NCBI GenBank assembly: GCA_965214095.1 | Contig: CBDCAZ010000001.1 | Location: 1 to 32,066, forward strand | Direction: 5' to 3' | DNA length: 32,066 nt | Origin: Candidatus Poribacteria bacterium | GTDB lineage: Bacteria; Poribacteria; WGA-4E; WGA-3G | In this document: positions 3,705-32,066 of the stretch, piece by piece | Numbering within the stretch: position 1 is the first letter of the stretch | How the letters are laid out: the number at the start of each line of letters is the position of its first letter | Made by a program: the position numbers and the translations under genes | The notes under the pieces: model-generated | The model's input: only the letters and a program-made list of their open reading frames with translations | Databases searched by the model: none | What the model was told of the DNA's origin: nothing

Positions 3705-5402
3705 ATGGAATACATCCCGATACGGGTCAGCGACATTGTGAAACACGTGAACCATGACTGGTATCTTCCGGCAATTCAGCGTGAACTCGAATGGAATACG
3801 GTCAGAATAGAACGTCTCTTCGATTCCATCTTGTCCGATTTCCCCATAGGTTCATTCCTATTTTGGAACTTGGAGGAGAAGAACAAGAGCGAATGGCCTA
3901 TTTATGAATTCATTCGCGACTACGATGAAGACAAGCCTCACAACGTCTTGGCTAACATCCATGGGATTCGGAAGGATCTTACGCTGGTTCTCGATGGGCA
4001 ACAAAGAATTACATCTCTGTATATCGGCCTGATGGGATCTTATCGCTTTTTCTATTATCGTTGGCGTATGACGCGATTATACCTCAATTTGCTCAAGCCA
4101 CCAGTCCCGAATGAAGAAAATCCGGAGGAACTTGCCCACGAGTTCTCGTTTCGCGAGAATGGCCACGCGACCAACGACCTAGAAAAGTTGTGGTATCCAG
4201 TTGGTCGAATACTCGACTTTAACGACGCTGAAGATGCCAAGGCAGATATGAAGCAAACACTGTCCAGATTTCCTGAAGACGCACAGGAAAACGCCAATAA
4301 GCTTATCGGACGACTGCACAATCGTATCCACACCACGTTGATCGGAAACTATTATCTCGAAAAATCCCAAGACTATGACAAGGTTCTACAGATCTTCGTT
4401 CGCTCCAATTCTGCCGGGCAGCCATTGGCGTATTCCGACTTGCTGCTTGCAACGGCAACGGCGAAGTGGGACACCCTTGACGCTCGTAGCGAGATTCACA
4501 ATTTTACCGATTTGCTCAACGAAACCGGTACCGGCTACAAGTTCGGCAAAGATTTTGTGCTAAAGGCCTGCCTCTATCTCTGCGAATCTCTGCCAATACA
4601 GTACAAGGTCAAGAATTTTTCGAAGTCCAACCTCCTGACCATCGAATCCAACTGGGAGTCCATCAAGGATACGCTTGCTGTGACGGTGCGCTTGATTTCC
4701 CGTTTCGGCTTCCAAGCGAAAAACGTCGTGGCACCACTGGCCCTGCTCCCGATTGCCTTTTACCTGCAGAAGCGGGGCGATCCGAACTTCGACAAGTCAT
4801 CGAGCGTCGAAGACGCGGAAGCTCAGATCGCCATTCGAAAATGGTTTGTGTTTGCGACCCTCAAGAATGCATTTGGCGGCTCCTCAGATACGACGTTGAC
4901 ACGTCTTCGCCAGATACTGACGAAAGCTGGTTCGGCATTCCCTGCGGAAGAAATGTACAGATCTCTTCAGATCGAGCCGTCGTTGAGCGACGCGGAAGTG
5001 GATCGGATGTTGGAATATCAATACCAGGGCCGTTACACTAATTTGATTCTGTCGTTGTTGTATCCCGATAGAGACTGGAAAGATGCGGTGTTTCATGAGG
5101 ACCATATATTCCCGCAATCTGAATTCAAGGTAACGTTGTTGAGGGGACGATGTTATGATGATACCAAAATCCAGTCGTATATGTCGCGGTTCAACACGCT
5201 GCCGAACCTTCAGCTTCTGACCGATTCCGAGAATATGTCGAAGGGTGCTACACCTTTCGACAAATGGCTAAAGACCAGGGACGCGAAGTACCGATGTCGC
5301 CATCTAGTCCCGGGTTTGACAGATTATTCTTTCGACAACTTCGAAGAGTTTTTTAACGCCAGACGGCAATTGATAGTGGCGGCACTCAAGGCACTTTCCT
5401 GA
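3705..5402 (+). CDS. DUF262 + C-terminal HNH (DUF1524-like) protein, GmrSD-family putative modification-dependent restriction nuclease
   Basis: LPAIQRE, LFDS..PIGS..W, VLDGQQRITSL and IFVRSNSAG (DUF262/ParB-like NTPase); HEDHIFP...NTLPNLQLL...EN (HNH). Visibly lower GC than the flanks. Confidence 0.88.
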   Translation: MEYIPIRVSDIVKHVNHDWYLPAIQRELEWNTVRIERLFDSILSDFPIGSFLFWNLEEKNKSEWPIYEFIRDYDEDKPHNVLANIHGIRKDLTLVLDGQQRITSLYIGLMGSYRFFYYRWRMTRLYLNLLKPPVPNEENPEELAHEFSFRENGHATNDLEKLWYPVGRILDFNDAEDAKADMKQTLSRFPEDAQENANKLIGRLHNRIHTTLIGNYYLEKSQDYDKVLQIFVRSNSAGQPLAYSDLLLATATAKWDTLDARSEIHNFTDLLNETGTGYKFGKDFVLKACLYLCESLPIQYKVKNFSKSNLLTIESNWESIKDTLAVTVRLISRFGFQAKNVVAPLALLPIAFYLQKRGDPNFDKSSSVEDAEAQIAIRKWFVFATLKNAFGGSSDTTLTRLRQILTKAGSAFPAEEMYRSLQIEPSLSDAEVDRMLEYQYQGRYTNLILSLLYPDRDWKDAVFHEDHIFPQSEFKVTLLRGRCYDDTKIQSYMSRFNTLPNLQLLTDSENMSKGATPFDKWLKTRDAKYRCRHLVPGLTDYSFDNFEEFFNARRQLIVAALKALS

Positions 5403-13076: not shown

Positions 13077-16000
13077 ATGGCTACAATTAAGCCGAGCCGA
13101 GCCGAGCCGAGCCGAGCCGAGCCGCTCTTCCTGCGTCTTCATGGTGGCGCCGCCTAGGGCGCTCCGCCTCCCGGCCTGAGCTTTCTTCCGCTAGCGGGCG
13201 TTCCGACAGCCGCCGGCCCGCTTCCTCCTCCGACAGCTTCGCTCCCTCTCCCACCCGCGCCGCCGCGGGCGTTGGTCCTACCGTTCGCCGTCCCCGGCGC
13301 GGCCTGCTGCCCGCCCTGTTTGTCCTGCCGCTGCTCCTCGGGCTGGCAACCGAAGCCGCAGCGCAGAGCCAGAGCGTGCCGACGCTCAAGGTCGAGATAC
13401 CGACCGTCACCGAAGGCGAGACCGGCACCATCAAGCTCACCCTGAGCCAGGAGTCGAGCCAGTCGATAGATACTCAGGTTAGCGCCTTCTCTATAGTTTG
13501 CGGCAGTGGCGTTACCTGCCCGCAAGGCACGACCGCAGCGGGCGCCAGCGACTATTCCTTAACCAGCGTGACGATAACCTTCGCTCCTAGCGAGACGACC
13601 AAGACCGTCTCCTTCACCACGACCGACGACAGCACGTCCGAGTCGACCGAGGTGTTCCAGCTTGCGGTTACCGGTCTCGCTGCCTCCGAAGCCACCATCG
13701 ACCCCAGCACGCCGGCAGACGGCCAAGGTTTTGGACAACCATACTGGTTAGTCCGCATCCAGGACAACGACAATCCGGGGAACCCGAACGTCACGATTAC
13801 CCCCGGCACGTCGCCGGTGACGGAGGGGACGGCTGCGACCTTCACGGTGACGGCGACGCCGGCGCCCACTGCGGCGACGACGGTCTCGGTGGCGGTGACG
13901 GAGGAGACGAGCGGCAGCCAGGATTTCGTGGCTTCGAGCAACGAGACCACGCACACGGTGACCATTCCGGCGTCGGGAAGCCCGAACGCGGGCACGGCCA
14001 CGCTCACCATCCCGACGGTGGGCGACACCAACCAGGAGCCGCATGGCGCGGTGACGGCGGCGGTGAACACCGGCACCGGCTATACGGTGGGCAATCCGTC
14101 ATCGGCGACCGTGACGGTGCTGGACGACGACGGCACGTCGGCGCCTCCGGAGGTGTCAGTGCGGTTGATGACCGGCGAGGGCGAGAACCGCAACTCCGAC
14201 GGCGAGGTGGAGAAGCCCGAGTCCGACGGCACGGTGTCGTTCCCTCTATCGCTGGACGCGCAACCGTCGGCGGCGCTGACAGTGTGCGTCCGAGTGACCG
14301 AGTCGGGCGATGTCGACCGGGTCGCATTGGCCGATGAAGGTATCAAGACGGTGAGTTTCAACTCCGGCGTGCAGACGGGGTCAATCGACGTGGCGTGGAC
14401 CGACACAGATGCGGACGACCTGGACAGCGTCATCACCGTTACGGCAGTCCCGTCCAACACCGTGGGCTGCAGCAGCACGGACGTGTACACGGTGTCGAGC
14501 ACCACCGGCTCAGACAAGGTGAAGGTCTCGGATGACGAAGTGACCGCATTGTCGTTGGCTTCTTCGGACACGGAGATGGGTGAAGGCGACGCTTCGAACA
14601 CGGCGGTGATAACGGTGTCTCTGGGTCGTGCGCTGATCAGCGGTGAGTCGGTGGTGGCGCCGATCACGCTCGCTACCGACAACGGCGCACGACTGCCCGG
14701 CCACGCGACACCGGACTTTGCGGTGGCCGCAATGGGCACCGGCGTGGCGCTGAGCAACGCGACGTCCGCGACGCCCCGACTGACGTTCACCGGCTCCGAC
14801 TCAAGCACCGTGCAGGAAGCGACGGTGACGCTGACTCCAGTGGCGAACCGGGACGACGGTGACACGGACAATGAGACGATCACCGCAACGCTTTCCCTGC
14901 TGACCGGCACGGGTTCGGGCACTGTGGTGACCGGCGGCGGCGTGGCAGTCGTACAGGCATCTTCGGTGGCGACCCTGACGCTGGAGGACGACGAGGCCGC
15001 GCCGCCGGCGTGCCCTGCCCAGAACAACAGCCTCAGCGTTGGCAGCATTCGCATTCTCGAAAACGGCGAAACGACCTATTGCGTGCGGCTTCCCACCGCG
15101 CCTTCCGGTGGCAACACCACCGTCACCATCGGCAAGGCGGGCAGATATCAGGGGGCCGCGAACGCAAGCACAACAACACTCACCTTCACGGCATCGAACT
15201 ACATGAACCCGCAGCCGGTAACGGTGACCGGCGTGGACCAGCCGAACCTCCATCTCAACCGCACACTGTCATTGACCCACGCGGCCAACGGCGGCGGCTA
15301 CTCGAACCAGGGACTGGGCTGGGTTTCGGTGACGGTGGACGACGCGCCCGAGCTTGAGGTGTTTGATCTGGCGGTAATGAACGCCAATGACTACGCTGCC
15401 AAACAGCGCCCGAACACCGTCAAGGCGACGCGGGGGTTCAGGTATTTCCAGAATGACATGGTGCCAATTCTGCCGCTGCGTTACCTGCTGCGCCTGTCGA
15501 ACCGCCCGGCGACCGGCGAAACGGTGACGGTGACGGCAACATCGAGCGACTTCGCCAAGTTCGGCCTGTCTCGGACCCCGGGCGGCACGCCGCAGCCGTC
15601 GCTGACGGTGACCTTCGAGGACCGCGATGCCGACCGGGTCTGTTTCAATGGGGGTCACGGCTCTCCTGATGGAGCTAACACGCCGAACCCGGACATGTCC
15701 TGGGCGTGCAATCGCCGGATCTGGGTCATCAGCACGCAGAATGACAAAGCGACCTACCGGAAGGGCTGTGCCGACATCACCCACACGGCCTCGGGCGGCG
15801 GCCTGCGCGGCACGGCTATCGGGACGATCCGCGCCCACGCCGTTGCTGCCGGCAACCACCGTGCCCCCTCCAACGCCCCGGGCCGCGGATGCGCCCTCAT
15901 CACCAGCGAACTGCGCGGCCGCTCCGCACCCGCCCTTGCCGCCCCGGCGCCCACCGAGGCAGTCTCCAACCTGCAGGTGACGGCGGTGGACGACACCAGC

Positions 16001-19000
16001 GCCAGCGTCACCTGGGACGCGGTGGAGCATGCCACCTCCTATGACGTGTCGTGGAGCGCCGAGAGCAGCGACGCGCTGAACGCTTCCGCCGGTGACTTGC
16101 CCGGTGTGACGGGCACCACGACCACCATCGACCACGGCGCCCCGGTGCCGATGACGCTGACGGTCACGGTCACGCCGGAATATGTCGACAAGAACGGCGA
16201 CACACAGCAGCTGGCGAGCCTCGCCGGCACGGCAACGCTGGCGGTGGGGCCGGGCAGCGACGCGCTGAGCGCCAGTGCCGAGAGCACTGACAGCCAGACA
16301 CCGGCCTGCGTCTCCGACGCCCTGCTGGCCGAAGCCCAGCTGGCTGCGAGCGAGACCTGGCGGACTTCGGGCCATGTCGAGCGCTGGAGCCGGGTGCTTG
16401 CCGCCTTCGGGGAGAGCAACGCCTGGAGCAACAACCCGATGACCGTCGCGGAGGCGCAGGCGCAGGCGGATCGCGGCCTGAAGCGCTGGGCGCCGGTAGC
16501 GCCGGCGCTGGAATGCCTGGAGAAGAAGCCGGCGCAGGCGGAGGCGCAAGCAGAGGCGCAACAGGCGGTTCCCGCGATCACCGTGACCGCCGGAGCGGGG
16601 GTGACGGAAGGCACGGCGGCGGGCTTCACGCTCAAGGCCGACCCGGTGCCGGCGGAAGAGCTCGCGGTGACGGTGACGGTCGCAGAGACCGGCGCCATCG
16701 CCGACGCCTCGGCGCTGGGCGAGCGCATTGTGACGATCCCGGCCGGGAAGGCGGAGGCGGCCTTCATGGTGGCGACGCTGGCCGACGAGGCCGACGAGCC
16801 GGCAGGCGCTGTGGTGGCGACGGTGAGCGACGGCGCCGGCTACACGGTGGACGATGAGGGCAAGAGCGCAAGCGTGGCGGTGGCGGACGACGACGCCACA
16901 GGGGTGGTGCTGACAGCGCCGGCGGGCGACCTGCCCGAGGCCTCGGGTAGCAAGACGCTGACGCTGACGCTCGGGCGCGCGCTGGTCGAGGGCGAGAGCC
17001 TCGCGGTGCCGCTGGCCTTTGCCGGCACGGCGACGCTCGGGACCGACTATACGCTTGCCGCGCCGGAGACGGCGCCCGCGGGCGTGACATATGCCAACCT
17101 TGCGGGAACCGATCCCAAGAGCCCGCCGACGGTGACCTTCGCCGGCGCGGCGGGGCGCAATTCGGCGACCGTGGCGACGCTGGTGCTGGCGACGGCCCCG
17201 ACCTTCTCGGTCGGCGACGAGACCGCCAATGAGGATGTCGGGCTGATGTATTTCACGGTGAGGCTCGACCGGGCCGTGAAGCGGACGGTGAAGGTGACCC
17301 TCACGGCGCGCGAGGCGAGCCCGGTCTCGGCCCGGTATGGCGAGGACTATTACTGGTGGTGGCCGGACGGGCTCGCGCTCACCTTCCATCCGGGCCAGAC
17401 CGAGAAGAAGATGTGGGTCTATGTCTACAACGACAACCACGACGAGGACCCGGAGACCTTCGAGGTGGCGCTGTCGCGGCCGACGGGGGGTGCGGTGATC
17501 GGCGACGGTGTTGCGGTGGGCACGATCGTCAACAACGACCCGATGCCGGCGGCGTGGCTGGCGCGGTTCGGTCGCACGGCGGCGGAGCAGGCTCTGGACG
17601 GCATTGCCGGGCGCATTGCGGCCTCGCGCACTGCCGGGATGCAGGGCTCGATCGCCGGGCAGGCGCTGAACCTCGATCCCGGATCCACCGGATCGAAGTC
17701 CGGGGGTGGGTCCGATCAGTCGGGCGCCGCGTCCGGCAATGACCTGCTGGCGCAGTCCGATGTCGCGCGCGCTTTCGGCGCTTCCACCGGCCATTTCGGC
17801 ACCAGTGGAACCGGCCATGACGCCTATGGCTTCGGCTTCGGCCAGGATCGTTTCGGCAGTAACGGCGCGCAGGCATACTCCATGACGGCGCGCGAGGCGC
17901 TGCTCGGCAGCAGCTTCACGGCAACGGGTGAGAAGGACGGCACGGGCGGCAGCCTGGCCTTCTGGGGCCGGGCGGCGCAGTCGAGCTTCGACGGAAGGGA
18001 GGGCGCCTTCTCGCTCGACGGCGAGGCGACCACGGCGATGCTGGGCGCCGACTATGCGCGCGGCAACTGGCTGCTCGGCATGGCGCTGATGCAGAGCAGC
18101 GGCGAGGGCGGTTACCGGGATACGAAGCCTGAATCCCGCGCCGTGTCGCAGATCTGCGCGGATGCCGAAAACGGCACCGAAAACGGCGGTTCGCAACCGG
18201 TGACCCATCTGTGCAACGGCGCTGTGCGGGCTGGCAATGGCGAGGTCGAGGCGACGCTGACGGCGGCGGTGCCCTATGCCGCATTGCAGGCGTCCGAGCG
18301 GATGAAGCTCTGGGGCGCGCTCGGCCATGGCACCGGCGAGGTGACGCTCAGGCCGGAGACGTCGGAGACGAGCAGGCCGCTCACGGCGGACATCTCCTGG
18401 ACGATGGCGGCGATGGGCCTGCGCGGCGATGTGGTCGCGCCGCAGGGCAGCGGTCCGGCGCTGGCGGTGACCTCGGATGCGCTCTGGGCGCGGACCAGCT
18501 CGGACAAGACGCATGAGCTGGCGGCGTCCGATTCCGACGTGACGCGCTTGCGGCTCGGTCTGGAGGGAAGCTGGAAGGTAGCCCTGGAGGGTAACGGCAG
18601 TGTCACGCCCAAGCTGGAAATAGGCGCGCGCCATGACGGCGGCGATGCGGAGACCGGCTTCGGGGTGGAGCTTGGCGGCGGGCTGGCCTGGATCGACCCG
18701 ACGCTTGGCCTGTCGTTCGACCTGTCGGGCCGCACGCTGGTCGCGCATGGCTCGGACGATCTGGAGGACCGGGGCTTTGCCGCCTCGCTCGCCTTCGATC
18801 CCGACCCGGCGACGAAGCGCGGTCCGTCGCTCACCCTCGCCCAGGACTGGGGCGGACAGGCCAAAGGCGGCCTCGACGCGCTGTTCACGCCGGAGACGCT
18901 CGACCGGCGCGGCGGCAGCGGCGCGGCCACCGCCCGCTGGCGGGCCGAGGCGGCATATGGCTTCCCGGCCTTCTCGGGGCGCTTCACCGGCAGCCCGCAT

Positions 19001-19168
19001 ATGGGGCTGGGGCTCGCCACCGGCGCACGCGACTACAGCATCGGCTGGAGACTGACGCCCTCGAAGAATGCGCCTGATGTCTCTTTCGGCATCCGGGCAA
19101 CCCGCAGGGAAAGCGACGCGGCCGCACCGGAGCATACCCTCGGGCTCGAAATCAACACGCGGTGGTGA
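13077..19168 (+). CDS. Large secreted/outer-membrane adhesin-like protein (Calx-beta/Ig-like repeats, FN3-like domain, C-terminal autotransporter-like beta-barrel); frameshifted at the (AGCCG)7 tract
   Basis: ORF 13376..19168 has VTEG...TVTVLDDD Calx-beta-type repeats, an FN3-like NLQVTAV..SVTWDAVEHATSYDVSW segment, and an amphipathic beta C-terminus ending in Trp. The frame stays open back to 13091 and encodes a signal peptide (RRPRRGLLPALFVLPLLLGLATEAAA/QS), but the ATGs with an RBS (13077, 12984) are in another frame. Confidence 0.85.
13090..13124 (+). repeat. Pentanucleotide microsatellite (AGCCG)7, putative phase-variation tract
   Basis: Seven perfect AGCCG units starting 13 nt after the first base of ATG 13077. 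Confidence 0.97.
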
Positions 19169-20927: not shown

Positions 20928-21923
20928 CTATTCCCGGCCAGCCTCCGGGAGTCGAACCTTCTCGACCAGGAAGCGTTTGATCCGGTCGAGTACGGCATCA
21001 AGCTTATCGCCACCTGCATTAACCTTGTGCAAATCGCTCAGAGCGTCGACCGCTTCCCGTTCGTTGAGGCTCGGGAAATGCTCCGCGAAGGTTGCTGGGC
21101 TGACTTCAAAATACAACTGGCCGCCGTTGTCGCCGGCCGAGGGGTACGCGTAGATCAGCATCTTCGTGCCTTTGTCCGGCGGCGCGATCGTTACCGATAA
21201 CTTGTTAGGCTTTACCCGGAGACCAGCCGCTTCCGCGATGCTCACAAAGCGGTCGAACTGCTCGCCCACATCCGCGTCTACGGCCCGGCGACGGACCGCT
21301 TCGACTGAGAATTGGCGAGGGGGAGATGATGGCCTGGTCGGTTCGTCGACCACCTCACGGATCAACAGCTGCGGGCCGCCATCCAACTCGAACACCTCGA
21401 AGCTGACGACACCGATCGGGACAGCGAAGCGGCCGAGAAACTCGTTCATTCGCTCCAGGCCGGGGTGGATCCCGGCACCGACAAGCAGCACCGCAATCTC
21501 GCGCCCCTCCTCTTCAGTCCGCAACTGCCGGTTCAGTCTTTCCGACAGTTGTACAGCGTCGCCGAATTTACAGAGGCCGGGTTCCAGCTTCTTCTTGAGT
21601 TCTTCGCCGTCGAGACGCGCAATCGAAGAGGCATAGTAGAGCCCCTGTGTCAGCGCGCCGGAGTCGAGTGTCCCGGATTTGATCTCGATCACCACCCAGC
21701 GATCCTGAGTGTCGATGGCCAGCAAATCGAGGATCCCGTCGTCGATCCTTACCTGCCGGCCGACCAGTGTCAGTCCTTCTCCGATCAGCGTCACATCGTT
21801 CACAATCCAGTCTTCGAGGTGCTTCTCCAGTCCGACGTGGGAGCGCTCGACCTTCCTCGGTGCCGACTGCCGCGCGGCATGCTCGTCGCGCTGTCGGTCT
21901 ATGGTCCACGCCGCCAATTTCAC
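20928..21923 (-). CDS. NucS/EndoMS-like (DUF91) PD-(D/E)XK endonuclease-domain protein
   Basis: LEKHLEDWI...LVGRQV...ILDLLAID...VVIEIKSG...ALTQGLYYA (E-x-K plus QxxxY). GTG start with GAGGGGAGG RBS. Confidence 0.82.
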   Translation of the reverse strand: MKLAAWTIDRQRDEHAARQSAPRKVERSHVGLEKHLEDWIVNDVTLIGEGLTLVGRQVRIDDGILDLLAIDTQDRWVVIEIKSGTLDSGALTQGLYYASSIARLDGEELKKKLEPGLCKFGDAVQLSERLNRQLRTEEEGREIAVLLVGAGIHPGLERMNEFLGRFAVPIGVVSFEVFELDGGPQLLIREVVDEPTRPSSPPRQFSVEAVRRRAVDADVGEQFDRFVSIAEAAGLRVKPNKLSVTIAPPDKGTKMLIYAYPSAGDNGGQLYFEVSPATFAEHFPSLNEREAVDALSDLHKVNAGGDKLDAVLDRIKRFLVEKVRLPEAGRE

Positions 21924-22421
21924 AACCGCAGCCTCCCCTCAACGCTCTTCCGTCGAATACAAACGTTGCAGTACGACTACAACATCCGCTCCACCCTGGT
22001 CGATGCGCAGGCTGTCGCAAGGCAGCATGCGAAGCGTCGGTAGCCCGGGAAGTCCTGCGCAGCGTAGTCCGGCTTCTGTGCTTCCCCGATTTCCTGCTGT
22101 GCCGGGAGGCGAAGGCCAGCCCTGCTTGCTGGCGGGCCGGAACCCGCATTCAATCTCGGCGATACTCCGAGCGGCTCTTCGGGAAGTTGCCATGCCTCCC
22201 CCTTATCGCACCCATGCAGGACCGGTATGCTGCGCTTGAGGGACCAGTCTGGACTGCCGGGGGCGGGATCTTGCAAGGGGCGTGGCATGAAAAGCGTCGG
22301 GGAACCATGAGCAAGGCCTTTTTCGACGGGCCTGTCGAAAATTCTTCGAAACCCTGCCTCTCGCGCATATCCCTCGTCTGGATGATCGCGCCGTCATGGC
22401 CGGCGACAGAATGGAGCGGGC

Positions 22422-22665
22422 ATGCCGGGTGAGTTCAGGTTCCTCGCGGAGCACCTGCCCCGACCCTGGGAGGCTAGGCGCGGCTTCTATGCAGCGGGAT
22501 TGTTTCTCGGGCATGGCCAGAAGGCCCGGGTCGCGCTCGGAAAGAGCGGCTGGAACCTGATTGCGACGCTCGGGTTCGAGATCGAGCGTCTCGATAACCT
22601 GACGGCCCTGCTACGGAGCTGGCATGGTCGGGGGACCCTGGCCGTGATACTGCACGAGACGGAGG
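22422..22665 (+). pseudogene. Probable gene fragment, possibly from the N-terminal region of a large Type IIG (Eco57I-like) R-M protein
   Basis: LIATLGFEIERLDNLTALLRS...LAVILHETE looks protein-like and recalls that region from memory only; no catalytic motifs present. Confidence 0.3.
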
Positions 22666-22738
22666 TACTAGGCCGGCGAAGCCCGTGTCGAGGATATCCC
22701 TCATCTCGATTGCGACGCTTGATGACGAACCGTGGCGA

Positions 22739-25708
22739 ATGACTGAATCACGTTTGCTGCAGGATACCATATTGCGTGTGCTGGACAGCGCGCCGCGCGG
22801 CCTGACGGTGGAGCGTATCCGCTCCCGGCTTACGACGGCGGGGACCGGCGTTCTCAAACACGAAGTAGTCCGGGCTCTGGCGGATATGAATGCGCGCCAG
22901 TTGGTGCAGCTGTCCGCCGGCCGGCGCTGGCAGGCCCGCGCGCGTCCCGGAAGAGCGGGGGGCGGGCCTTCGCGCACCGCTTCCGTGGACGATTATATCG
23001 TCGCCGTCCATTGTCGGGCGTTTTCCGGCGAGGCATCCGTTCCCGACCCGGAAATGCAAGAAGGCAGAATAGAGCCGAACGCCGGGCTGTTGGCGCGGCT
23101 GCTCCCGTACTACCAGGAAGCCCTGAAGGCCAATGACGGCGGGACACCCAGGGCTTTCACCGGTCAACATGGAGATTCCTTCATGTTGATCGAGCCCGAC
23201 AAACAGTGGTGGCCCACAGCCGAATGCGGGCGCACATTGACGGTCCCGCTTTCCGGAATTTCACCGGGTTTCCTGTCCCTAGTGGCGAAGCGCGACGGCG
23301 AACACCTGCTTCTCGGTTACCCGCTCCACATGATAGCGTCCCGAGACGGTGAAAACAGTGCTTTCGTCCGTCCGGTTTCTGTATTCCGCTGCCGGTACGA
23401 GCATACCGACAGTCACCTCCGCATACATGTTCCGGCTGTGGGTCCGGCCATTGTCCGGGAATGGCTGAACGATCAGGTCAAATTCAAGGGCTGGGAAACG
23501 GCCCGTCTCCTGAACTGGTTGCGCATAGAGGAAGACGACAGGGGAGCCATGCAGGACGACCTGGGCGAGGGTCCTGACTTTCTGGAAATGCCGTCCTTCA
23601 TTCGGCGGTTGGAGGCCGTCGCTGGCAAATTGCTTCAGCAAGAACTTCTTCCTGGCGCGGTTGCCTCTCGTGTCCCGCACAAGGGCGAAACCGGCTACTA
23701 CAACGGTCTAGCCCTGTTCGTGGAAGCCTCGGGAATGTACACACGTTCGGCGATCCGGGACTATGACGAACTCTGCCGACTGAGACCGGAGACGCTTGCG
23801 TCCACGGCACTTGGCCCCCTGTTCGGCTCGCCCGTGTCTCATCTCTCGACCCCGCCGCTCATGCACCCCTTCCCGTTGGGCGAAGCGCAATTGCTGGCAG
23901 CGCGAACTGCCCTGACGGGTCCCCTCAGCGTTGTCACCGGCCCGCCGGGAACGGGCAAATCGCAGGTCATAGCCGCCATCATGCTCAGCGCGGCGGCAAG
24001 TGGCCGATCGGTGCTGCTGGCGGCCCGCCTGCACCGCGCCATTGACGCCGTTCAGGAGCGCCTGGAAGCCTTGGCCGGAGACCGCGCGGTGCTCGTGCGC
24101 GCGAATGAACAGGACGGGTTTGCGAGGTTCACATTCGCCGACGCACTTCAGGCCCTGCTTGTTCGGGCTGGCGACGCCGATGCCGCGGCACATTTTGACC
24201 GGATGATGCCGATACTTTCGGAAGCGGACTCGCATCGTTGGGCGCTTCTGGAGAAATGGCGGAGCCTGAAGGCGCTGGGGGAAGAGCATGGCGCCCTGCT
24301 TGCCGAGGTCGAGAAGGTCGTGGTTGAGCGGAGGAAGTTCGCGAGTGCTGACCGGCCTCCCGGCACCACGGTCCGCGAGCCTGGCACCATCAAACGCTGG
24401 CTGTTGAAGCTGGCGCGCCTTCTTGGTCTGCTTGACCGTCCCCTCCGAACATCCTTGGGCTCGGAGTTTCGTCATGCGCATTTCGATCGGGAAGAGACGC
24501 GGCTGAAGGCGCGCCTGCGCGACAATGAGAACGCCATCCGCTCGCTGCAGGCCGAGCTGGACGACCAGACGGATACGCCCGTCGGTCTGGGGGAGAAGAT
24601 AGAGAAACTGAGTGCGGATCTGCTGCCGCGCCTACTCTCCCGGCTCGACGGCGTCGAGCAGAGCGACCGGCAGGCGTTGAGCGCCATTGCCGGCGACGCA
24701 GCCGTTCTGGTCCGTCACGGCGGTGAGGCGGAATCCCATGCCCTTGTTCTGAAACACATGCCCCTGTGGGCCGTGACCACGCTGGCTGCCGGTAGCAGGA
24801 TTCCTCTTGAGCCAAGGTTGTTCGACTATGTTGTGTTCGACGAGGCGGCCGCGACGGATATCGCTTCAGCGATCCCGCTTCTGTTCAGGGCCAAGGCGGC
24901 GGTTGTTGTCGGCGACCCGATGCAGCTCGGATTGATCTCCAGAATGGATCCCCGCGAGGAGGGGCGGATCTTGAGCCTGTTCAACTTGAAAAGGCCTGGT
25001 ATCGGCGGCTTTCTGCAAAGCCGGACCAGCCTCTTCCAATTGGCGGCATCGGCTGTCGACGAGCCCCCGATGCTGTTGAACGAACATTATCGATGCCATC
25101 CCGACATAGCCGCGTATTTCAACGAAGCCTTTTACGGCAACCGGCTGGCCGCCCTGACCGACACAAGCCGGTTGCGTGTCCCGCAAGGCTTCAGGCCGGG
25201 GCTCCACTGGACCGATGTCGAGGGACCCGTATCTTCGGGGCGTGCTCTCGGAATGGCCGGGTCCGCCTATTCCGACCCAGAGGCCGAAGCTGTCGTTCGA
25301 CAGCTCGGAGAGCTTCGCGAGCGCGAATTCGAAGGGTCGGTCGGCGTCGTGACCTTCTTCGCGCCTCAAGCCAAGCGCATCAACGAACTCGCGGCCCGGG
25401 AACTGGGCTCCGCCGCGTTGGACAAGCTGCAGGTCAAGGTGTTTACCGCCAACAGGTTCCAGGGAGACGAACGGGACGTGATGCTCCTGTCGTTGTGCTT
25501 GGCTGCCGACATGCCGCCCGGGGCGCGGAACTTCCTGAAGAAGGAAAAGCGCCTGCTGAATGTCGCTGTCAGCCGGGCACGGGCGGTCTGCCACATCTTC
25601 GGCAACAGGACCCATGCGGCGCAGTGCGGCATTGGGGACAACGGGCCGCAAGATCCGGCAAGCTCAAGAGGCGTATCGAAAGAACGCGGCACTGGTTACC
25701 GCACTTGA
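22739..25708 (+). CDS. SF1 helicase, UPF1/DNA2-like (AAA_11/AAA_12), with N-terminal wHTH; C-terminus possibly truncated
   Basis: TGPPGTGKSQ, FDEAA, VGDPMQL, EHYRCHPDI, FQGDERD, LNVAVSRAR; coiled-coil insert between motifs I and II. ATG 22739 preferred over GTG 22685. Confidence 0.92.
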   Translation: MTESRLLQDTILRVLDSAPRGLTVERIRSRLTTAGTGVLKHEVVRALADMNARQLVQLSAGRRWQARARPGRAGGGPSRTASVDDYIVAVHCRAFSGEASVPDPEMQEGRIEPNAGLLARLLPYYQEALKANDGGTPRAFTGQHGDSFMLIEPDKQWWPTAECGRTLTVPLSGISPGFLSLVAKRDGEHLLLGYPLHMIASRDGENSAFVRPVSVFRCRYEHTDSHLRIHVPAVGPAIVREWLNDQVKFKGWETARLLNWLRIEEDDRGAMQDDLGEGPDFLEMPSFIRRLEAVAGKLLQQELLPGAVASRVPHKGETGYYNGLALFVEASGMYTRSAIRDYDELCRLRPETLASTALGPLFGSPVSHLSTPPLMHPFPLGEAQLLAARTALTGPLSVVTGPPGTGKSQVIAAIMLSAAASGRSVLLAARLHRAIDAVQERLEALAGDRAVLVRANEQDGFARFTFADALQALLVRAGDADAAAHFDRMMPILSEADSHRWALLEKWRSLKALGEEHGALLAEVEKVVVERRKFASADRPPGTTVREPGTIKRWLLKLARLLGLLDRPLRTSLGSEFRHAHFDREETRLKARLRDNENAIRSLQAELDDQTDTPVGLGEKIEKLSADLLPRLLSRLDGVEQSDRQALSAIAGDAAVLVRHGGEAESHALVLKHMPLWAVTTLAAGSRIPLEPRLFDYVVFDEAAATDIASAIPLLFRAKAAVVVGDPMQLGLISRMDPREEGRILSLFNLKRPGIGGFLQSRTSLFQLAASAVDEPPMLLNEHYRCHPDIAAYFNEAFYGNRLAALTDTSRLRVPQGFRPGLHWTDVEGPVSSGRALGMAGSAYSDPEAEAVVRQLGELREREFEGSVGVVTFFAPQAKRINELAARELGSAALDKLQVKVFTANRFQGDERDVMLLSLCLAADMPPGARNFLKKEKRLLNVAVSRARAVCHIFGNRTHAAQCGIGDNGPQDPASSRGVSKERGTGYRT

Positions 25709-26216
25709 GGGAACGGTATCGGGGCTTACGGCCGAGGAGGCCGAGCTCAGGGCCCGTATTCCTTCCTTGGAGGCGCGGCGGGACTCTGCTGCGAACCACC
25801 TCGTCGATCTCGAGAAACGTCTGATGTCGGTTCGCCGGCAAGCCACCGAAGCGGAACAAGAACTTGCGGCAGCGCATAAGGCTATTCAGGAAGCAGAGTT
25901 GCAAAAGAGCGCCGAGATCAACGCCATGGAGAACGCGGTCAAGGAACTCAGAGTTGCTGAGTCAGCTCTGATGAAGCGCATTTCGGTTCTGGAAGCGAAG
26001 CGCGACACGATCGCCAGCAGCGTAAGCGACCTTGATGAGCGCCGGACGGAACGGAACCGTCTGGCGGCGGAAGCTGCGTCGTTGAAGGATGCAGTGGCGG
26101 CGCTCCGCTCTGCGAAAGCACAACTGCGTTCAGGGGATACGACGCCGGCGTTGCCATCGCCTGCGAAAGTCGCACCGAGACTTCCTCATCCGGATGCAGA
26201 AGGGGTTCCGCAATGA
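25560..26216 (+). CDS. Coiled-coil protein (CnuA-like), probably missing its N-terminus
   Basis: Continuous heptad-rich helix from ~25640; stop overlaps the next ATG (ATGA); 5' part overlaps the helicase and has no convincing start. Confidence 0.65.
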   Translation: MSLSAGHGRSATSSATGPMRRSAALGTTGRKIRQAQEAYRKNAALVTALEGTVSGLTAEEAELRARIPSLEARRDSAANHLVDLEKRLMSVRRQATEAEQELAAAHKAIQEAELQKSAEINAMENAVKELRVAESALMKRISVLEAKRDTIASSVSDLDERRTERNRLAAEAASLKDAVAALRSAKAQLRSGDTTPALPSPAKVAPRLPHPDAEGVPQ

Positions 26217-28303
26217 GTTGGCTCAGGACCCCGGAGGGTGTCTTCTTCCTGATGGCCCTAGTGACCATGACCGTCGTCTTCGGTTTGGCCTGCTACTACA
26301 CTCTCCGTTTCTACATGGCTCGGGAACGGCTGCCTTACGCGACGCGCAACGCGGAGTTGGAAACCCTTGTTCCGCGACGTGAAGCCGAGCTTCTCGAATG
26401 CGAACAGCGTCTGGTGGATGTCAACAACCTCATCCGCGAAGGTGAGGCGAAGCTTTCTGAACGCGATCGATGGGAAGCGGAAGCGGAGTTCTGGCGCTCC
26501 CAAGTCGAGAGCCTCAAGGCTGAATACGCAGGCATGGAATTGCTTCGCACAGAGATCGAAGAGGTTCAGGAACGCTATAGACAGGAACTCGAAAAGCTCG
26601 CGGATACCGAGCAAAAGGCGCGAGAAGCACAAGGCGCTTGGGAGGACTCGCGCTTGCGTGTCGCCGAGGCCGAGCGCCGATTGGCGCAAGTTGCGGAGGA
26701 GGAGGGCCGTCTTCACGAAGCCCGCGAAACCGCCGAGCAGGAGATCGCGGAAACGAGGGCCGGTCTCGCCACCTCTAGGGCAGAGTTGCGTGCTGCAAGG
26801 GAGGACATGGAACGCGCTCAGGACCGCGTCGACCGCCTCACGCGCGAAGCGGAGACTCTGGAGAGCCGCTCGAAGGAACTGAGGGACTCGATTCCGAACC
26901 GGGAAGACGAGTTCAGCAGGTTGCGCGCAGATTTGAACGATCTAGAACCGAAGCGCCAAGAACTCGGCCAGGTGAGGCAGGCACTCTCTTTGGAGTCACG
27001 GGAATTGGACGCCTTGCGCGAGACGATGACAGAACTTCGGGATGAGGAAGCGCTGCTGAATGCCCATATCGCACAAAAGCGTGCACATTTGGGGCCCACG
27101 AACAGCGATCCATTCGAAGACCTGCGTGCGCTACCGAGTTTCCTTGCCGACAACAAGCTCTCAACGCCTCTGGAGAATGAGACCGAAGCCGATGCTCTCA
27201 ACCGGGTCCGAAGGCACCTGGAGGCCAGCAATCTCCAATTTCACCGCCGCACGATCGACGCCTTCCACACGAGCCTCAAGACTGGTGCCATTTCCCCGCT
27301 CACGGTGCTGGCGGGGGTAAGCGGTACCGGCAAGAGCCAGTTGCCGCGGCTGTATGCGGAGGCCATGGGCATACATTTCCTAAAGCTTGCAGTTCAGCCC
27401 CGCTGGGATGGACCGCAGGACCTTCTGGGCTTCTACAACTACATCGAACAACGGTACAAGGCGACAGAGTTTGCGCGCGCCCTGGTACATATGGATGTCC
27501 ACAATTGGCTGAAGCAGGCAGAACCGTATCGGGACCATATGCTGTTGGTCCTTCTCGATGAAATGAATTTGGCCCGTGTCGAGTACTACTTTTCGGAGTT
27601 CCTGAGTCGTCTGGAGGGTCGGCCTGTAGCTGGAAGAGATATAGATCCTGAGTCCCGCCTTCCGGCCGAAATTCCATTGGAAGCTGCAGGGCAAAACAAT
27701 AACGACCACCAAGGTCGCATTTATGTTGGTCACAATATCCTCTTCGTCGGTACGATGAACGACGATGAGTCGACATTAGCTTTATCAAGCAAAGTGTTGG
27801 ACCGGTCCAATGTGTTACACTTTCCAAAGCCGCCCGAGTTGAAACCGGAGTTGCCAGCCGCGAACACGCAACATGTGGCGAGCGGTTATCTGGCGCGCTC
27901 CTGCTGGATCGACCGTTGGATGCGGAGCACAAAAACGATGGAACCGGCCGCCTTTCGACGGGCGGCGGAGATCGTTGATAGGATAAACGGCGTCATGGAT
28001 GACATGGAGCATCCGTTCGGTCATCGCATGAGTCAAGCTATCCTCCATTATGTGGTCAATTATCCTCAGGGAGCCAACACCCAAGCAGTCGCAAATATGG
28101 CGCTCGCAGATCAGATTGAGTTTCGCATTCTTCCTCGACTGCGTGGAATGAATCTGGAGGAGAAAACGAAGCCGCTGAATGAGCTTGTAAGTGTTGTCAA
28201 AGGAGAGCTCGGGGACCAAGCGCTGGCCAGGGAGATAGAGCAGGCAGCGAAACGCGTGGATACAGGCGGTTTCTTCGTTTGGCGCGGTTTGGTCCGAAAT
28301 TAG
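26213..28303 (+). CDS. McrB-family AAA+ GTPase with N-terminal TM helix and long coiled coil (CnuB-like)
   Basis: VFFLMALVTMTVVFGLACYY (TM); ~250-aa coiled coil; GVSGTGKS, VQPRW...LLG, LLDEMNLARVEYYFS, GTMNDDES (NxD signature), KVLDRS. Confidence 0.92.
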   Translation: MSWLRTPEGVFFLMALVTMTVVFGLACYYTLRFYMARERLPYATRNAELETLVPRREAELLECEQRLVDVNNLIREGEAKLSERDRWEAEAEFWRSQVESLKAEYAGMELLRTEIEEVQERYRQELEKLADTEQKAREAQGAWEDSRLRVAEAERRLAQVAEEEGRLHEARETAEQEIAETRAGLATSRAELRAAREDMERAQDRVDRLTREAETLESRSKELRDSIPNREDEFSRLRADLNDLEPKRQELGQVRQALSLESRELDALRETMTELRDEEALLNAHIAQKRAHLGPTNSDPFEDLRALPSFLADNKLSTPLENETEADALNRVRRHLEASNLQFHRRTIDAFHTSLKTGAISPLTVLAGVSGTGKSQLPRLYAEAMGIHFLKLAVQPRWDGPQDLLGFYNYIEQRYKATEFARALVHMDVHNWLKQAEPYRDHMLLVLLDEMNLARVEYYFSEFLSRLEGRPVAGRDIDPESRLPAEIPLEAAGQNNNDHQGRIYVGHNILFVGTMNDDESTLALSSKVLDRSNVLHFPKPPELKPELPAANTQHVASGYLARSCWIDRWMRSTKTMEPAAFRRAAEIVDRINGVMDDMEHPFGHRMSQAILHYVVNYPQGANTQAVANMALADQIEFRILPRLRGMNLEEKTKPLNELVSVVKGELGDQALAREIEQAAKRVDTGGFFVWRGLVRN

Positions 28304-28319
28304 AAGGCAAGCGTGAACC

Positions 28320-29939
28320 ATGGCCACCCCGGACCTCATTTTGCTCGAGCGGCCGTGGGACCTGATCGGCCGACAGTACAAGCCCCTAGGCGGGCCGGAT
28401 ATTGACGATGTGAGGTACGGTGGGCGTATCGTACCCCTGTTGTTCAGCCGCAATGAGGACCTTGTGGAGGTTGACGGTGACAGCCAACAAGCGGAGGCGT
28501 TCGTCAATATACGAACGAGGGCGCATGAGAAGCAGGTTGTCTGGAGTATTCCGGTTCCCCTGAACCGGGATGACGAGCAGACCGTGTGCTTCCACGAGTG
28601 GGACACTGAAACGCGCCTTATGCGCGACTACAGGATTGGCCGCCCACCGCACGCAAGTTCGAGAGTTTCGAACGTTGGCGGCGAAAGGGAAGGTCGGGAA
28701 ACAGAAACGCTCGTGATTCGTTTCCTGCAGGCGATAGCGGCGCGAATGCACGACTTTGAAACCAGGGACACAACGGAGTTGGATCTCTGGGACAGGGTAA
28801 TCGACCTCTGGCTCGATCCCGAAAAACGACGCGACCCGACAATGGACGTCATCGTCAGGCATGCCCGCGAATACCGCCGCAGATGGGAGGACATCGCCAA
28901 ACACCCCAGGCGCCTTCTGAACCGGACCCGCGAACTGGTGCCCCTGCCCCGTGTCCAGGAATTGGACGTGGCATGTGTGCGGTGGCTGTCGCGCCAACCC
29001 GGCGGTGCTGTTGCGGAGCGGGCTGGCAGCCGCCAGCGTATTCTAGCGCTAGCTCGCCATGAGAACCGCAACACCTTGGAAAACAGGGTCTTTCGCGATC
29101 TCCTGCGCCGCAGCCAGCAGGCGGCGCGCGACTACTTGCGCGCAAACGAAAACTTTGGCGCTACATCAAGGACGCACGAAGTCCGACGCTACGGGAAAAA
29201 CTGCGACGACCTGGACAGGGAACTTGGCGATCAAGGCGTGACCCGGCTGATCGGCCAAGTCCAGGCGAATTATGTCCTGCTCCACGACGAACGCTACCGC
29301 AATGTCTGGATTGCCTGGCAGGACATGATCCGCCGCGAAAGGGCCCAGGACAATCTGTGGCGCTGGCAGCACAGGTCCTGGGAGGAGTTCTGCAAGGCAG
29401 TTGTCGCCGGCGCTCTTCGCTGGATCGATGGCGTTGAGCGATATTTTGCCTCGCCGTTGTTGGTACGCGGTGAACACCGGCGCGGACATTGGCTTATCCA
29501 TGACGACCCGATGGTAGTTGTCGCTCATTGGGACAAGGATTGGGTCACCGAGCTTCTGTCCGGAAATTCGGACGATGTGTCCAAGGACCTCCGTGAATTG
29601 TGCGCGTCTTTCTGGCTTCGCTGCGCCGATCTGAAGGGGGGCGACTATGTCTATATGCCGGTATGGGCGGTCCATGCTCTGGATGGCGAGCCGAAGCTCG
29701 GGGAGCTCGTAAATTCTGCTGCGGGCGCCTTGGAGAGGATGCGGCAGCGGCATTCGAATCTGTCGAACGGGATCGTTCTGGCTTCGCATATCGACCCGAA
29801 CTCGAAGAACGCAAGAGAAGACGGAGCGCGAGTGGTCGGCTATGCGTTCGGTCCGTATGACGAGCATCTGTCCGGCGCCTTCGAGACATTGGGAGATGTC
29901 CTCCAGAACCGGATCGAGAGGGCTGTATGCGATCGCTGA
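28320..29939 (+). CDS. DUF2357 / McrC-like partner protein
   Basis: Directly downstream of McrB; NTLENRVFRDLL, NYVLLHDERYRNVW, WEEFC. No clear PD-(D/E)XK catalytic motif in the C-terminus. Confidence 0.8.
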   Translation: MATPDLILLERPWDLIGRQYKPLGGPDIDDVRYGGRIVPLLFSRNEDLVEVDGDSQQAEAFVNIRTRAHEKQVVWSIPVPLNRDDEQTVCFHEWDTETRLMRDYRIGRPPHASSRVSNVGGEREGRETETLVIRFLQAIAARMHDFETRDTTELDLWDRVIDLWLDPEKRRDPTMDVIVRHAREYRRRWEDIAKHPRRLLNRTRELVPLPRVQELDVACVRWLSRQPGGAVAERAGSRQRILALARHENRNTLENRVFRDLLRRSQQAARDYLRANENFGATSRTHEVRRYGKNCDDLDRELGDQGVTRLIGQVQANYVLLHDERYRNVWIAWQDMIRRERAQDNLWRWQHRSWEEFCKAVVAGALRWIDGVERYFASPLLVRGEHRRGHWLIHDDPMVVVAHWDKDWVTELLSGNSDDVSKDLRELCASFWLRCADLKGGDYVYMPVWAVHALDGEPKLGELVNSAAGALERMRQRHSNLSNGIVLASHIDPNSKNAREDGARVVGYAFGPYDEHLSGAFETLGDVLQNRIERAVCDR

Positions 29940-32066
29940 TCGGAGTCGACCTGAACGGAGTGCATGACTGGCTCGCGCGGTTCGACGACACCGATAGGGA
30001 TACCTCAAAGGACGAAATCATCGACCTTGGCCTCCGGAGCGCAATGATCCGTCTCCAGGAGCAACGCGGGCGATGGGTCGCCGACAAGCAGGCCGAGACC
30101 GCTCCGCATGGCCGCGGTCCCGGTTGGGGCGAGATCGGGAAATCGGGGAACCGCCTGCCGGTTCTCGAGATGCTGGACGGCCTGTGTTGCGAGAATGCCG
30201 ACCGGCGTACCAGGGAGGCCGTCGTATCGTCCCTGCCCGGAATTGTGGGGGACACCGACCGGGCGGTCTTTGCGGTCCCGGACATTCCAGCTTACGGGGA
30301 GGCGTTTCAGGACCGCCTTATCGATTTGCTTGCGCCCGCAATGGGACGGCGCCCTTTACTGCTCTGGCGACCGGTTGCCGCGCTGCTTGGATATATCCGG
30401 CAGCGCGGCAGCAACCTCCAACCCGGCGCCAATGTCGCAATTCTCTCCCTGATGGCGGATGGTCTCCATCTGTCCACGCTATCGCTGGACCGGGACCGGC
30501 ATGACGGGCAACTCGTGCCGGAACGCCGCAAATCCGGCGAATCTGCAGGTACGGCGTTCTGCGGGATCCAGCTCGTGAAGAATGCGCAGAGACATCTGGC
30601 TGAAAATTCCCCAATGAAACTCGAGGAAATCGAAGCTGCCGCCATAACGCCCTGGCGTTCCGCCATCGGCGCGGGACAGCAGACACAGGAGCTGGCTCGT
30701 CTAGCCACCAATCGCGGCTGGATCAAGTTCCCGAAGCTTACACTTCGCTTCTCGTCACCTGGCAGCGCCAGCACCTTTCCCGTTGCCTTCATGCAACAGT
30801 TGAGCGAAGCCAAGATCATACTCATCGAAGGACCGTTCGCCGACAATGTCGAGTGGCGCCAAGAAGTCGAGAATGCTCTGCGCGATAGCGCGAATCTTCG
30901 GGGAACCGTCCAGACGCTGGACAGCGCGACCGTTGCCCTCGGATGTCTGGAGGCGGCGCAGCGTGAACGCGATGGCCAATCGATCTATTTCGACTTCCTG
31001 CCTCAGCTCGAAATCAACGCCTCCGTGAATAATGCCCCGCAATTCGTAAATCTGATCGTGCCCGGCGCCCGCTGCCGAGGTGGCGATACCTTCAGAGGCT
31101 ATGCTCCTGGCAACTTTTTCATTCAGCGAGGAGCGACACGGCCGGATTTCTGGCTTTTCAAGGAAGGGTTTGCCCAAGGCCGCCGAGCTGCGGTCTCCTT
31201 TGATGTGAATGTAGATCGACAATGCTCCCTCGTTGTCTCGGTAGAGCAGACACCGGGACAAGGCTCCGCCGTAGTTCAGATTTCATCTCCCGATCTTGAG
31301 GAAATCGGGCAAACTCCCATCATTCTCAATTGGAATGCCATGGAAATTGTCGAAGACTCACGAGACGCAATTCTGGAGCATTTGCAAAATCGTTCACCAA
31401 GCGGGCGCCACTACCCCAACACCCACGTTAAACAAGGCCACGCAGGCTTGTGGTTCTCAAACCACCCTAAAGGCAGCCTTGTTCGAGAGCTTGAACTCTT
31501 CTGTGAGATTCCGCTTGTTCAACGTAGAAGAGTTAATGAACGTGCGTGGAATCAGCTTCGGGTTCTAAGGAATCGCTTCAGTAAACCTGAATCAGTTAAG
31601 TTTCTTTTTCAGAAGCTAAATATACAGATTGAAACCGGAGGTAATTTTCATGCACTCAACGCTGATGGGACTCTTCCGCGGCAAGAAATAAACCTTCCCA
31701 TTCCGATCGGGGCGAGCGAAGTTATAGATAAGGCGTTGTCAAAGTGTGCTCGTGATTTTATTATCCTTCATAAGCGCGTCGGAAACGATATAGACCCCAA
31801 GCTCTTGGGTGATATAGTGGGTTTTGCCAGCTGGTGCTTTTGGAGGTGTCCTGAAGAGATAATTGAATTCATTTTGGAGGCATACGAGGATAGGCTTTAT
31901 CGCAAAGTACATCGCACTTTGATACGCCAAGGTGTAGCAAGGGTAATCTACAAACGAGAGCACCTAGAACGATACTTTTATGCTTTGGAGGGAGAGATGT
32001 CAAAAGGAAAAAATATCGCTGCAGCAAATTATGCAGGTCTTTCCCGGGTACTTGGGACAATAGAGT
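29927..32066 (+). CDS. Divergent Hsp70/actin-fold (ASKHA) protein, >713 aa, incomplete at the window end
   Basis: Absent from the ORF track because it has no stop in the window. ATG 29927 overlaps the upstream stop. Motifs MRSLIGVDLNG, VFAVPD, LLWRPVAALLGY, IILIEGP and VALGCLEAA parallel Hsp70 IGIDLG, VITVPA, NEPTAAALAY, ILVGG and VALGAA. Confidence 0.8.
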   Translation, partial: MRSLIGVDLNGVHDWLARFDDTDRDTSKDEIIDLGLRSAMIRLQEQRGRWVADKQAETAPHGRGPGWGEIGKSGNRLPVLEMLDGLCCENADRRTREAVVSSLPGIVGDTDRAVFAVPDIPAYGEAFQDRLIDLLAPAMGRRPLLLWRPVAALLGYIRQRGSNLQPGANVAILSLMADGLHLSTLSLDRDRHDGQLVPERRKSGESAGTAFCGIQLVKNAQRHLAENSPMKLEEIEAAAITPWRSAIGAGQQTQELARLATNRGWIKFPKLTLRFSSPGSASTFPVAFMQQLSEAKIILIEGPFADNVEWRQEVENALRDSANLRGTVQTLDSATVALGCLEAAQRERDGQSIYFDFLPQLEINASVNNAPQFVNLIVPGARCRGGDTFRGYAPGNFFIQRGATRPDFWLFKEGFAQGRRAAVSFDVNVDRQCSLVVSVEQTPGQGSAVVQISSPDLEEIGQTPIILNWNAMEIVEDSRDAILEHLQNRSPSGRHYPNTHVKQGHAGLWFSNHPKGSLVRELELFCEIPLVQRRRVNERAWNQLRVLRNRFSKPESVKFLFQKLNIQIETGGNFHALNADGTLPRQEINLPIPIGASEVIDKALSKCARDFIILHKRVGNDIDPKLLGDIVGFASWCFWRCPEEIIEFILEAYEDRLYRKVHRTLIRQGVARVIYKREHLERYFYALEGEMSKGKNIAAANYAGLSRVLGTIE

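Follow-up and report, generated by a model that had tools for sequence, protein, structure and literature searches.

The 32,066-bp contig CBDCAZ010000001.1 (positions 1 to 32,066 of the forward strand; hereafter the window), one of the four contigs in an assembly assigned to Candidatus Poribacteria (GCA_965214095.1), carries in its final 9.4 kb five plus-strand open reading frames (ORFs) that we interpret, with a probability of about 0.8, as a Type III-B CoCoNuT cassette, a McrBC-derived, Type IV restriction-like locus, which has undergone an internal deletion and is most likely unable to restrict, as no predicted nuclease is left in this copy. It is probably a broken copy of a system type that has been described computationally (Bell, Sahakyan, Makarova, Wolf and Koonin, eLife 2024; PMC11090510) and no new kind. 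The ORF listing gives cnuH (ORF1) at 22685-25708 (1007 aa), a remnant of cnuA (ORF2) at 25560-26216 (218 aa), cnuB (ORF3) at 26213-28303 (696 aa), cnuC (ORF4) at 28320-29939 (539 aa) and cnuD (ORF5) at 29927-32065 (713 aa), which is still open where the sequence stops; as the window is the entire contig, this last gene of the operon is cut by the contig end. An initial annotation, made from the sequence alone, had listed five tightly packed plus-strand ORFs, and their spacing was reproduced, with a 4-nt overlap at 26213-26216, a 16-nt gap at 28304-28319 and a 13-nt overlap at 29927-29939. Missing from that annotation was a stretch of 149 nt (25560-25708) shared by ORF1 and ORF2 in differing frames, which is, on sequence grounds, the scar of the deletion.

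Relatives were collected by scanning one genome per GTDB species, which gave 460 stretches with CnuB relatives; the best 80 of the 460 were fetched, and tail lengths and spacings were counted in the 65 loci in which the helicase end and cnuB are both present. The closest relative, L002, has a CnuH of 1136 aa and a CnuA of 590 aa. CnuH of the window follows its L002 counterpart over aa 1-983 with 81% identity, up to nt 25633, from where the L002 protein runs 130 aa further; the window continues with 24 out-of-frame codons from cnuA-derived DNA (nt 25634-25708), closed by the stop at 25708. From the other side, aa 448-522 of L002 CnuA aligned by tblastn to nt 25632-25856 in the ORF2 frame (63% identity), and BLASTP of the remnant covered aa 400-585 of L002 CnuA. 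Helicase homology and cnuA homology abut at a plus-strand junction at 25633..25634, as placed by blastn and tblastn against L002. Since the former stops at 25633 and the latter starts at 25632 with residue 448 of the 590 in L002, the Vsr-like domain and about the first three quarters of cnuA are gone. The Vsr-like nuclease tail is accordingly missing from CnuH of the window. Beyond the helicase end, 63 of the 65 relatives carry a tail of 119-134 aa (the exceptions are L023 with 35 aa and L047 with 88 aa), and all six CnuH tails tested matched both PF18741 (REase_MTES_1575) and PF04480 (DUF559) above their cut-offs; judged by family, this tail is a Vsr-like nuclease. When the four contigs of the genome were searched by tblastn, neither a Vsr-like tail nor a second CoCoNuT was detected on any of them. 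Between helicase aa 983 and the start of cnuB lie 579 nt here versus at least 1552 nt in all 65 relatives (median 2060 nt), a net loss of ~1.5 kb compared to the median relative and of ~1.7 kb in L002 coordinates, the size difference being partly offset by length variation in the repetitive 3' part of cnuA. What is left of cnuA (25632..26216, plus strand, ~194 codons) is the 3' quarter to third of a coiled-coil gene whose product has a median length of 553 aa in the relatives (61 loci); its native start and N-terminal membrane helix are lost, and the native 4-nt overlap with cnuB is kept. The ATG that opens ORF2 (25560) and a second ATG at 25614 both fall within helicase coding sequence and are therefore fortuitous. 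The initial annotation had seen no intact nuclease within the window, which holds, the cause being the ~1.5-kb deletion and neither a feature of the subtype nor the end of the window. With the four remaining frames uninterrupted, the decay is probably recent. In L002 itself cnuD is broken into two ORFs (705 and 185 aa; L002 15700-16265), and together with the short nuclease tails of L023 and L047 this may mean that decay of such cassettes is fairly common.

The junction was spanned in four public sequencing runs (three samples, one study) with no differences and no gaps. Run contigs of 9,269, 10,443, 8,260 and 10,409 bases cover 23259-32066, 22085-32066, 22521-30780 and 22119-32066, respectively, depth was flat over the junction, and no joints or alternative forms were reported in the four runs. 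As the contigs of all four runs carry the identical junction, a one-off misassembly is excluded; contigs conceal rare variants, and a minority intact allele is still compatible with this agreement.

The order helicase-CnuB-CnuC-CnuD, all on the same strand, was found in 62 of the 80 fetched loci, in line with the initial annotation, whose reading supposed a gene order conserved elsewhere. Another 13 loci are cut by contig ends yet compatible with this order, three have no detectable CnuD, and two have neither the upstream helicase nor CnuD. By record title, most of the relatives are alphaproteobacterial, others being labelled as Binatia, Gammaproteobacteria, Planctomycetota and Desulfobacterota. 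In flanks of 5 kb on each side no gene family was common to more than four of 61 loci, so the five genes are the whole conserved unit, and the comparison set describes a five-gene cassette that moves as a unit without conserved neighbours. A nuclease gene downstream of cnuD was considered as a candidate and rejected, because no conserved family lies there (at most four of the 61 loci in the 5-kb flanks); with nothing conserved after cnuD, downstream sequence would not yield a nuclease. Full-length relatives were present among the fetched loci for four of the five operon ORFs, and none of nine long antisense or alternative-frame ORFs tested, which are common in this GC-rich contig, had a Pfam match; therefore the operon ORFs are real genes and no chance frames of GC-rich DNA.

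The longest frame of cnuH starts at GTG 22685, and ATG 22739, its codon 19, is the likely start of the gene. CnuH matched Pfam AAA_11 and AAA_12, and phmmer against the PDB returned UPF1, SEN1, SMUBP-2 and DNA2 as top matches. As these are its best solved relatives by sequence, CnuH is assigned to the UPF1-like helicases of superfamily 1 (SF1). The AAA_11 match takes 349 residues for 247 profile positions, and a large, presumably helical insertion is predicted after Walker A. For the question of an N-terminal winged helix-turn-helix (wHTH), the sole Pfam match of aa 1-100 was a weak one to MarR_2 (E 0.097), and ESM Atlas features of the protein reached a best score of 0.77 with DUF4011 and AAA_11 clusters. 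The helicase core also matched the PADLOC models Hhe, Mokosh MkoA/MkoC and PDC-S37 at E 1e-11 to 1e-43; CnuH of L002, with its tail intact, matched PDC-S37 and Hhe.

CnuB starts with a hydrophobic helix (aa 9-27, nt 26237-26293), a predicted membrane anchor. A hydrophobic window of 19 aa (Kyte-Doolittle mean of at least 1.6, in practice at least 1.84) was found at the N-terminus of 29 of 29 CnuB homologues and likewise at that of CnuA in 58 of 61 loci; by these predicted CnuB and CnuA helices, Type III-B CoCoNuTs would be tethered to the membrane. The main text of PMC11090510 names transmembrane helices six times and never for Type III-B, and its supplements may already hold this feature. A coiled coil is placed at roughly aa 45-300 of CnuB, with matches to coiled-coil families covering about aa 45-340, Walker A lies at aa 368-375 and Walker B at aa 447-452, and an N516-x-D518-E519 motif is encoded at nt 27758-27769. 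Across all 29 aligned homologues both Walker motifs, N516, D518 and E519 show no variation, some full-length homologues carry the name McrB family protein in their source records, and the PADLOC candidate model PDC-M26A matched CnuB with E 6.7e-41. According to the main text of Bell et al. (2024), the form NxD followed by E defines the McrB branch that contains the CoCoNuTs, and the NxD reading of CnuB is taken from this definition and not from a phylogeny with reference sequences. In a PDB profile search with the full CnuB alignment, McrB was not among the matches listed, which are dominated by myosins and SMC proteins via the coiled coil.

CnuC matched Pfam DUF2357 with 29.8 bits (cut-off 23.3), and an AlphaFold model from 30 sequences had a predicted local distance difference test score (pLDDT) of 87.5. 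The best structural matches of this model were McrC chains from the McrBC complexes of E. coli and Thermococcus, with Foldseek probabilities of 0.97-1.00 and VIA-align Z scores of 8.8-9.6 over residues 130-533. In the model an immunoglobulin (Ig)-like beta-sandwich (aa 1-104; Z about 4 to Ig-like folds) precedes the helical bundle of DUF2357 (about aa 123-367) and a domain of PD-(D/E)xK fold without the catalytic lysine (about aa 374-537). Residues 342-539 matched the restriction endonucleases BsaWI (Z 6.9) and PaqCI (Z 5.8). Glutamate E411 is conserved, and the lysine two positions after it (the ExK position) is absent in 30 of 30 CnuC sequences, four of which have arginine there. Because of this absence the nuclease domain of CnuC is regarded as inactivated, as PMC11090510 describes.

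CnuD had no match in Pfam, NCBIfam or PADLOC. Its model (pLDDT 88.4) gave DnaK, BiP and Hsp110 as top Foldseek matches (E 1e-15 to 1e-11, probability 1.00, ~11% identity), which cover both the nucleotide-binding domain (NBD) and the substrate-binding domain (SBD) over 570-760 aligned columns. A helical C-terminal domain begins at aa 596 and is cut by the contig end, leaving CnuD ~105-150 aa short of its closest complete relatives (818-863 aa). Contigs of all four runs extend 461 nt beyond nt 32066, which would suffice for the missing residues. A circular contig was considered and rejected, as joining the end to the start adds 24 aa to cnuD with a tail unlike the continuation in the relatives, and the two ends do not overlap. 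The 3' third of cnuD (30998-32066) falls to 44-49% GC, and GC at third codon positions is 0.46 there compared to 0.70 in the 5' part; the same fall occurs in L002 and L003 and is weaker or absent in more distant loci. A possible cause is an exchange of modules in the C-terminal helical domain.

Therefore the parts that the initial annotation had named, i.e. a helicase, a coiled-coil McrB with the NxD signature, a DUF2357 partner and an Hsp70-fold component, were all recovered, the first as an SF1, UPF1-like enzyme. Its statement that some CoCoNuT subtypes include an Hsp70-like part agrees with the main text of PMC11090510, and the Type III-like variant that it proposed corresponds in architecture to Type III-B as described there. 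The PADLOC check that it suggested was informative for CnuB, named as candidate PDC-M26A, and for CnuH, which matched helicase-nuclease models, and returned nothing for CnuC and CnuD.

The deletion can also be read as a short form that works. Membrane-tethered CnuB, CnuC and CnuD would then act as a sensor and, with a bare UPF1-like helicase, still interfere with invaders at the inner membrane, as the III-B class would do in general, for instance by stalling RNA or stripping it, or through a nuclease borrowed from a nearby gene such as the NucS_C-like PDC-S11 gene at 20928-21923, and the cnuA remnant would be translated from ATG 25560 or 25614. This fits with the other frames being intact and the helicase motifs readable in translation, with the native 4-nt stop/start overlap between remnant and cnuB, with an AGGA located 3 nt before ATG 25614, and with the NucS_C/PDC-S11 gene just upstream on the opposite strand. 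Nevertheless, we consider it unlikely that the allele is alive as such a nuclease-free CoCoNuT, as the nuclease tail is kept in 63 of the 65 relatives and a long cnuA frame (415-1067 aa) lies between cnuH and cnuB in at least 57 of them. Moreover, the two sides are joined out of frame, which gives the helicase a nonsense tail of 24 aa, the candidate starts lie within conserved helicase coding sequence and thus arose by chance, and no other locus shortened in this way was found among the genome and metagenome contigs scanned. Less probable still is an assembly artefact, i.e. a collapse across the coiled-coil gene in DNA that really holds a complete cnuH-cnuA. cnuA is internally repetitive, with several alternative BLASTP registers, and repeats can collapse in short-read assemblies, but the helicase sequence at the left breakpoint is unique and no repeat, a unique Vsr-like domain would survive the collapse of a repeat, and the separately built contigs of the four runs share the junction with no differences, at flat depth and with no alternative forms. 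That the locus is no CoCoNuT at all, and an unrelated McrBC-like pair came to lie beside a helicase by chance, is just as improbable. Pfam stays below its cut-off for the GTPase domain, for which PADLOC gives only the candidate PDC-M26A, with nothing for CnuC or CnuD; yet many taxa share the five-gene order (62 of the 80 loci), the NxD(E) motif does not vary, all domain architectures fit the Type III-B description in the main text of PMC11090510, and the relatives are mostly alphaproteobacterial, as that text states for III-B.

Several observations weigh against the interpretation as a deleted III-B cassette. For the GTPase, Pfam AAA_5 scored 16.9 bits on CnuB (cut-off 22 bits), E. coli McrB was the sole PDB sequence match with E 0.82, and a gapless alignment with E. 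coli McrB puts the E of CnuB under the D of NxxD, by which the motif is readable as N-x-x-E. The wHTH and the oligonucleotide/oligosaccharide-binding (OB) fold of CnuH were not confirmed by Pfam on N-terminal pieces or by Atlas features. The relatives from which the deletion is deduced reach no more than 81% identity, and a near-identical intact allele was absent from the genome contigs scanned across GTDB species (best 81%, in the helicase) and from metagenome contigs (best 61%); a short form specific to this lineage is formally conceivable. Within the bounds of the contig, the frames of cnuB, cnuC, cnuD and the helicase part of cnuH have remained open and complete, as would also be expected under continued selection. 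As the four runs may include the source sample of the assembly, their agreement is without biological independence. Finally, experimental tests of Type III CoCoNuTs are absent from the literature found, and the mechanism is wholly inferred.

For the intact relatives, a mechanism can be proposed from the protein families and PMC11090510, with McrBC structures as an analogy. CnuB would be tethered at the inner membrane by its N-terminal helix and carry, on a coiled-coil stalk of ~250 aa, a McrB-like GTPase ring, which CnuC would engage via its DUF2357 part, as McrC does in McrBC. The dead PD-(D/E)xK domain of CnuC may serve in nucleic-acid binding, and the Hsp70-like CnuD may recognise the substrate, either RNA or a nascent peptide. 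CnuH, combining a UPF1-like 5'-3' helicase and a Vsr-like endonuclease, would be the effector that translocates on and cuts the nucleic acid of the invader, its Vsr-like domain being the sole nuclease of the intact III-B system predicted to be catalytically competent. CnuA, as a second membrane-anchored coiled coil, may bundle these parts. In this copy ~1.5 kb between the helicase core's end and a point inside cnuA are gone, by which the competent nuclease would be lost and cnuA left without start codon or anchor. The locus adds little to the system type, which was described computationally in 2024, and the copy in the window is damaged. Nevertheless, the natural deletion would provide a ready-made control for tests of Type III-B, as it takes away both the accessory coiled coil and the nuclease predicted to be the effector, with the GTPase and the McrC-like and Hsp70-like proteins remaining, and the predicted membrane anchors on both coiled-coil proteins bear on the cellular site of Type III-B action.

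The contig that carries the cassette has a GC content of 64.1% (0.49 to 0.77 per kb), compared to 41.1% in the 5.2-Mb main contig of the assembly, and encodes on the minus strand at 8059-12783 a TrwC relaxase-helicase of 1574 aa (a relaxase fused to an AAA_30/UvrD_C_2 helicase, Pfam E 2.3e-73). From the GC difference and the relaxase it follows that the contig is a mobile or foreign piece, i.e. a mis-binned contig, a contaminant or foreign plasmid, or a recently acquired element. A gene matching GmrSD_N and PADLOC HEC-05 is located at 3705-5402 on the plus strand (E 1e-182; GC of the gene 48.5%), and the NucS_C/PDC-S11-like gene mentioned above lies on the minus strand (E 1e-26). With these two genes on the same contig, the CoCoNuT sits in a small defence island, and the contig is a fragment of a conjugative element (plasmid or integrative and conjugative element) carrying this island. 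A protein of 1930 aa with two Calx-beta domains, and no other domain recognised, is encoded on the plus strand at 13376-19168; its ORF is overlapped by an antisense ORF of 1288 aa without a match. Megablast of nt 1-22700 against PLSDB gave no match. A sigma-70 promoter scan of 21800-26400, which says little for a GC-rich donor, found no promoter-like site, and two terminator-like sites were found in the same region versus 3.9 expected. Upstream of cnuH, 41 nt (22004-22044) lie in the sequencing runs on a short contig of 135 nt, with a depth of ~120-128 versus 11.7 elsewhere in two of the four runs (X2 and X4), and several single-base variants occur at 22074-22263. The depth peak and the variants suggest a repeated element and strain variation at the 5' border of the operon.

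Among known systems, the helicase core of CnuH is shared with Hhe, Mokosh MkoA/MkoC and PDC-S37, which are stand-alone or two-gene systems without McrBC-like or Hsp70-like partners. McrBC of E. coli and Thermococcus (PDB 6HZ4, 6UT6 and 6UT7) is similar in combining a GTPase with Walker A, Walker B and sensor-asparagine motifs and a McrC-like partner; the window differs in having NxD(E) and not NxxD, a McrC-like protein without the catalytic lysine, and three extra genes. The sole experimental protection data for the CoCoNuT class in the literature found come from the Obs locus of Pseudomonas aeruginosa, which protects, according to a preprint (bioRxiv 10.64898/2026.04.06.716636), against PP7 and LeviOr01, both of them RNA phages, and the DNA phage MPK7. 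Obs shares the CoCoNuT class with the operon of the window, but is a seven-gene, Type II CoCoNuT-like locus with another effector set and says nothing direct on Type III-B. Closer are the Type III-C and III-A CoCoNuTs, which in the main text of PMC11090510 also combine an NxD CnuB with a UPF1-like CnuH and have an Hsp70-like module, which stands alone in III-C and is fused with CnuC in III-A. Type III-C has a separate CnuE with two PLD nuclease domains, and Type III-A a HEPN CnuE, TerY-P and a CnuC without a PD-(D/E)xK remnant, none of which are found in the window; Pfam families of the TerY-P triad (VWA, PP2C phosphatase, kinase) were absent from the five genes and from 15 other long ORFs of the 32-kb contig.

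For Type III-B, mainly found in Alphaproteobacteria, the same text describes a CnuH with an N-terminal wHTH (Sul7s-like), an OB fold, a helical insertion and a fused Vsr-like PD-(D/E)xK nuclease, a CnuA consisting of coiled coil only, CnuB, a CnuC with a dead nuclease domain, and a separate Hsp70-like CnuD with helical (HEAT-like) repeats, and no TerY-P genes. Compared with this description, the copy in the window has no Vsr-like nuclease on CnuH, cnuA has lost roughly three quarters of its length, cnuD runs off the contig, and the N-terminal membrane helices of CnuA and CnuB are an addition to the main text. As the Vsr-like tail is absent here and present in nearly all relatives, the locus is filed by descent as a deletion derivative of Type III-B and not as a complete member. 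Agreement is close in the UPF1-like helicase of CnuH, the coiled-coil NxD CnuB, the lack of TerY-P genes, the separate Hsp70-like CnuD, a CnuC composed of an Ig-like domain, DUF2357 and an inactivated PD-(D/E)xK domain, and a gene set and order, cnuH-cnuA-cnuB-cnuC-cnuD, that match Type III-B gene for gene.

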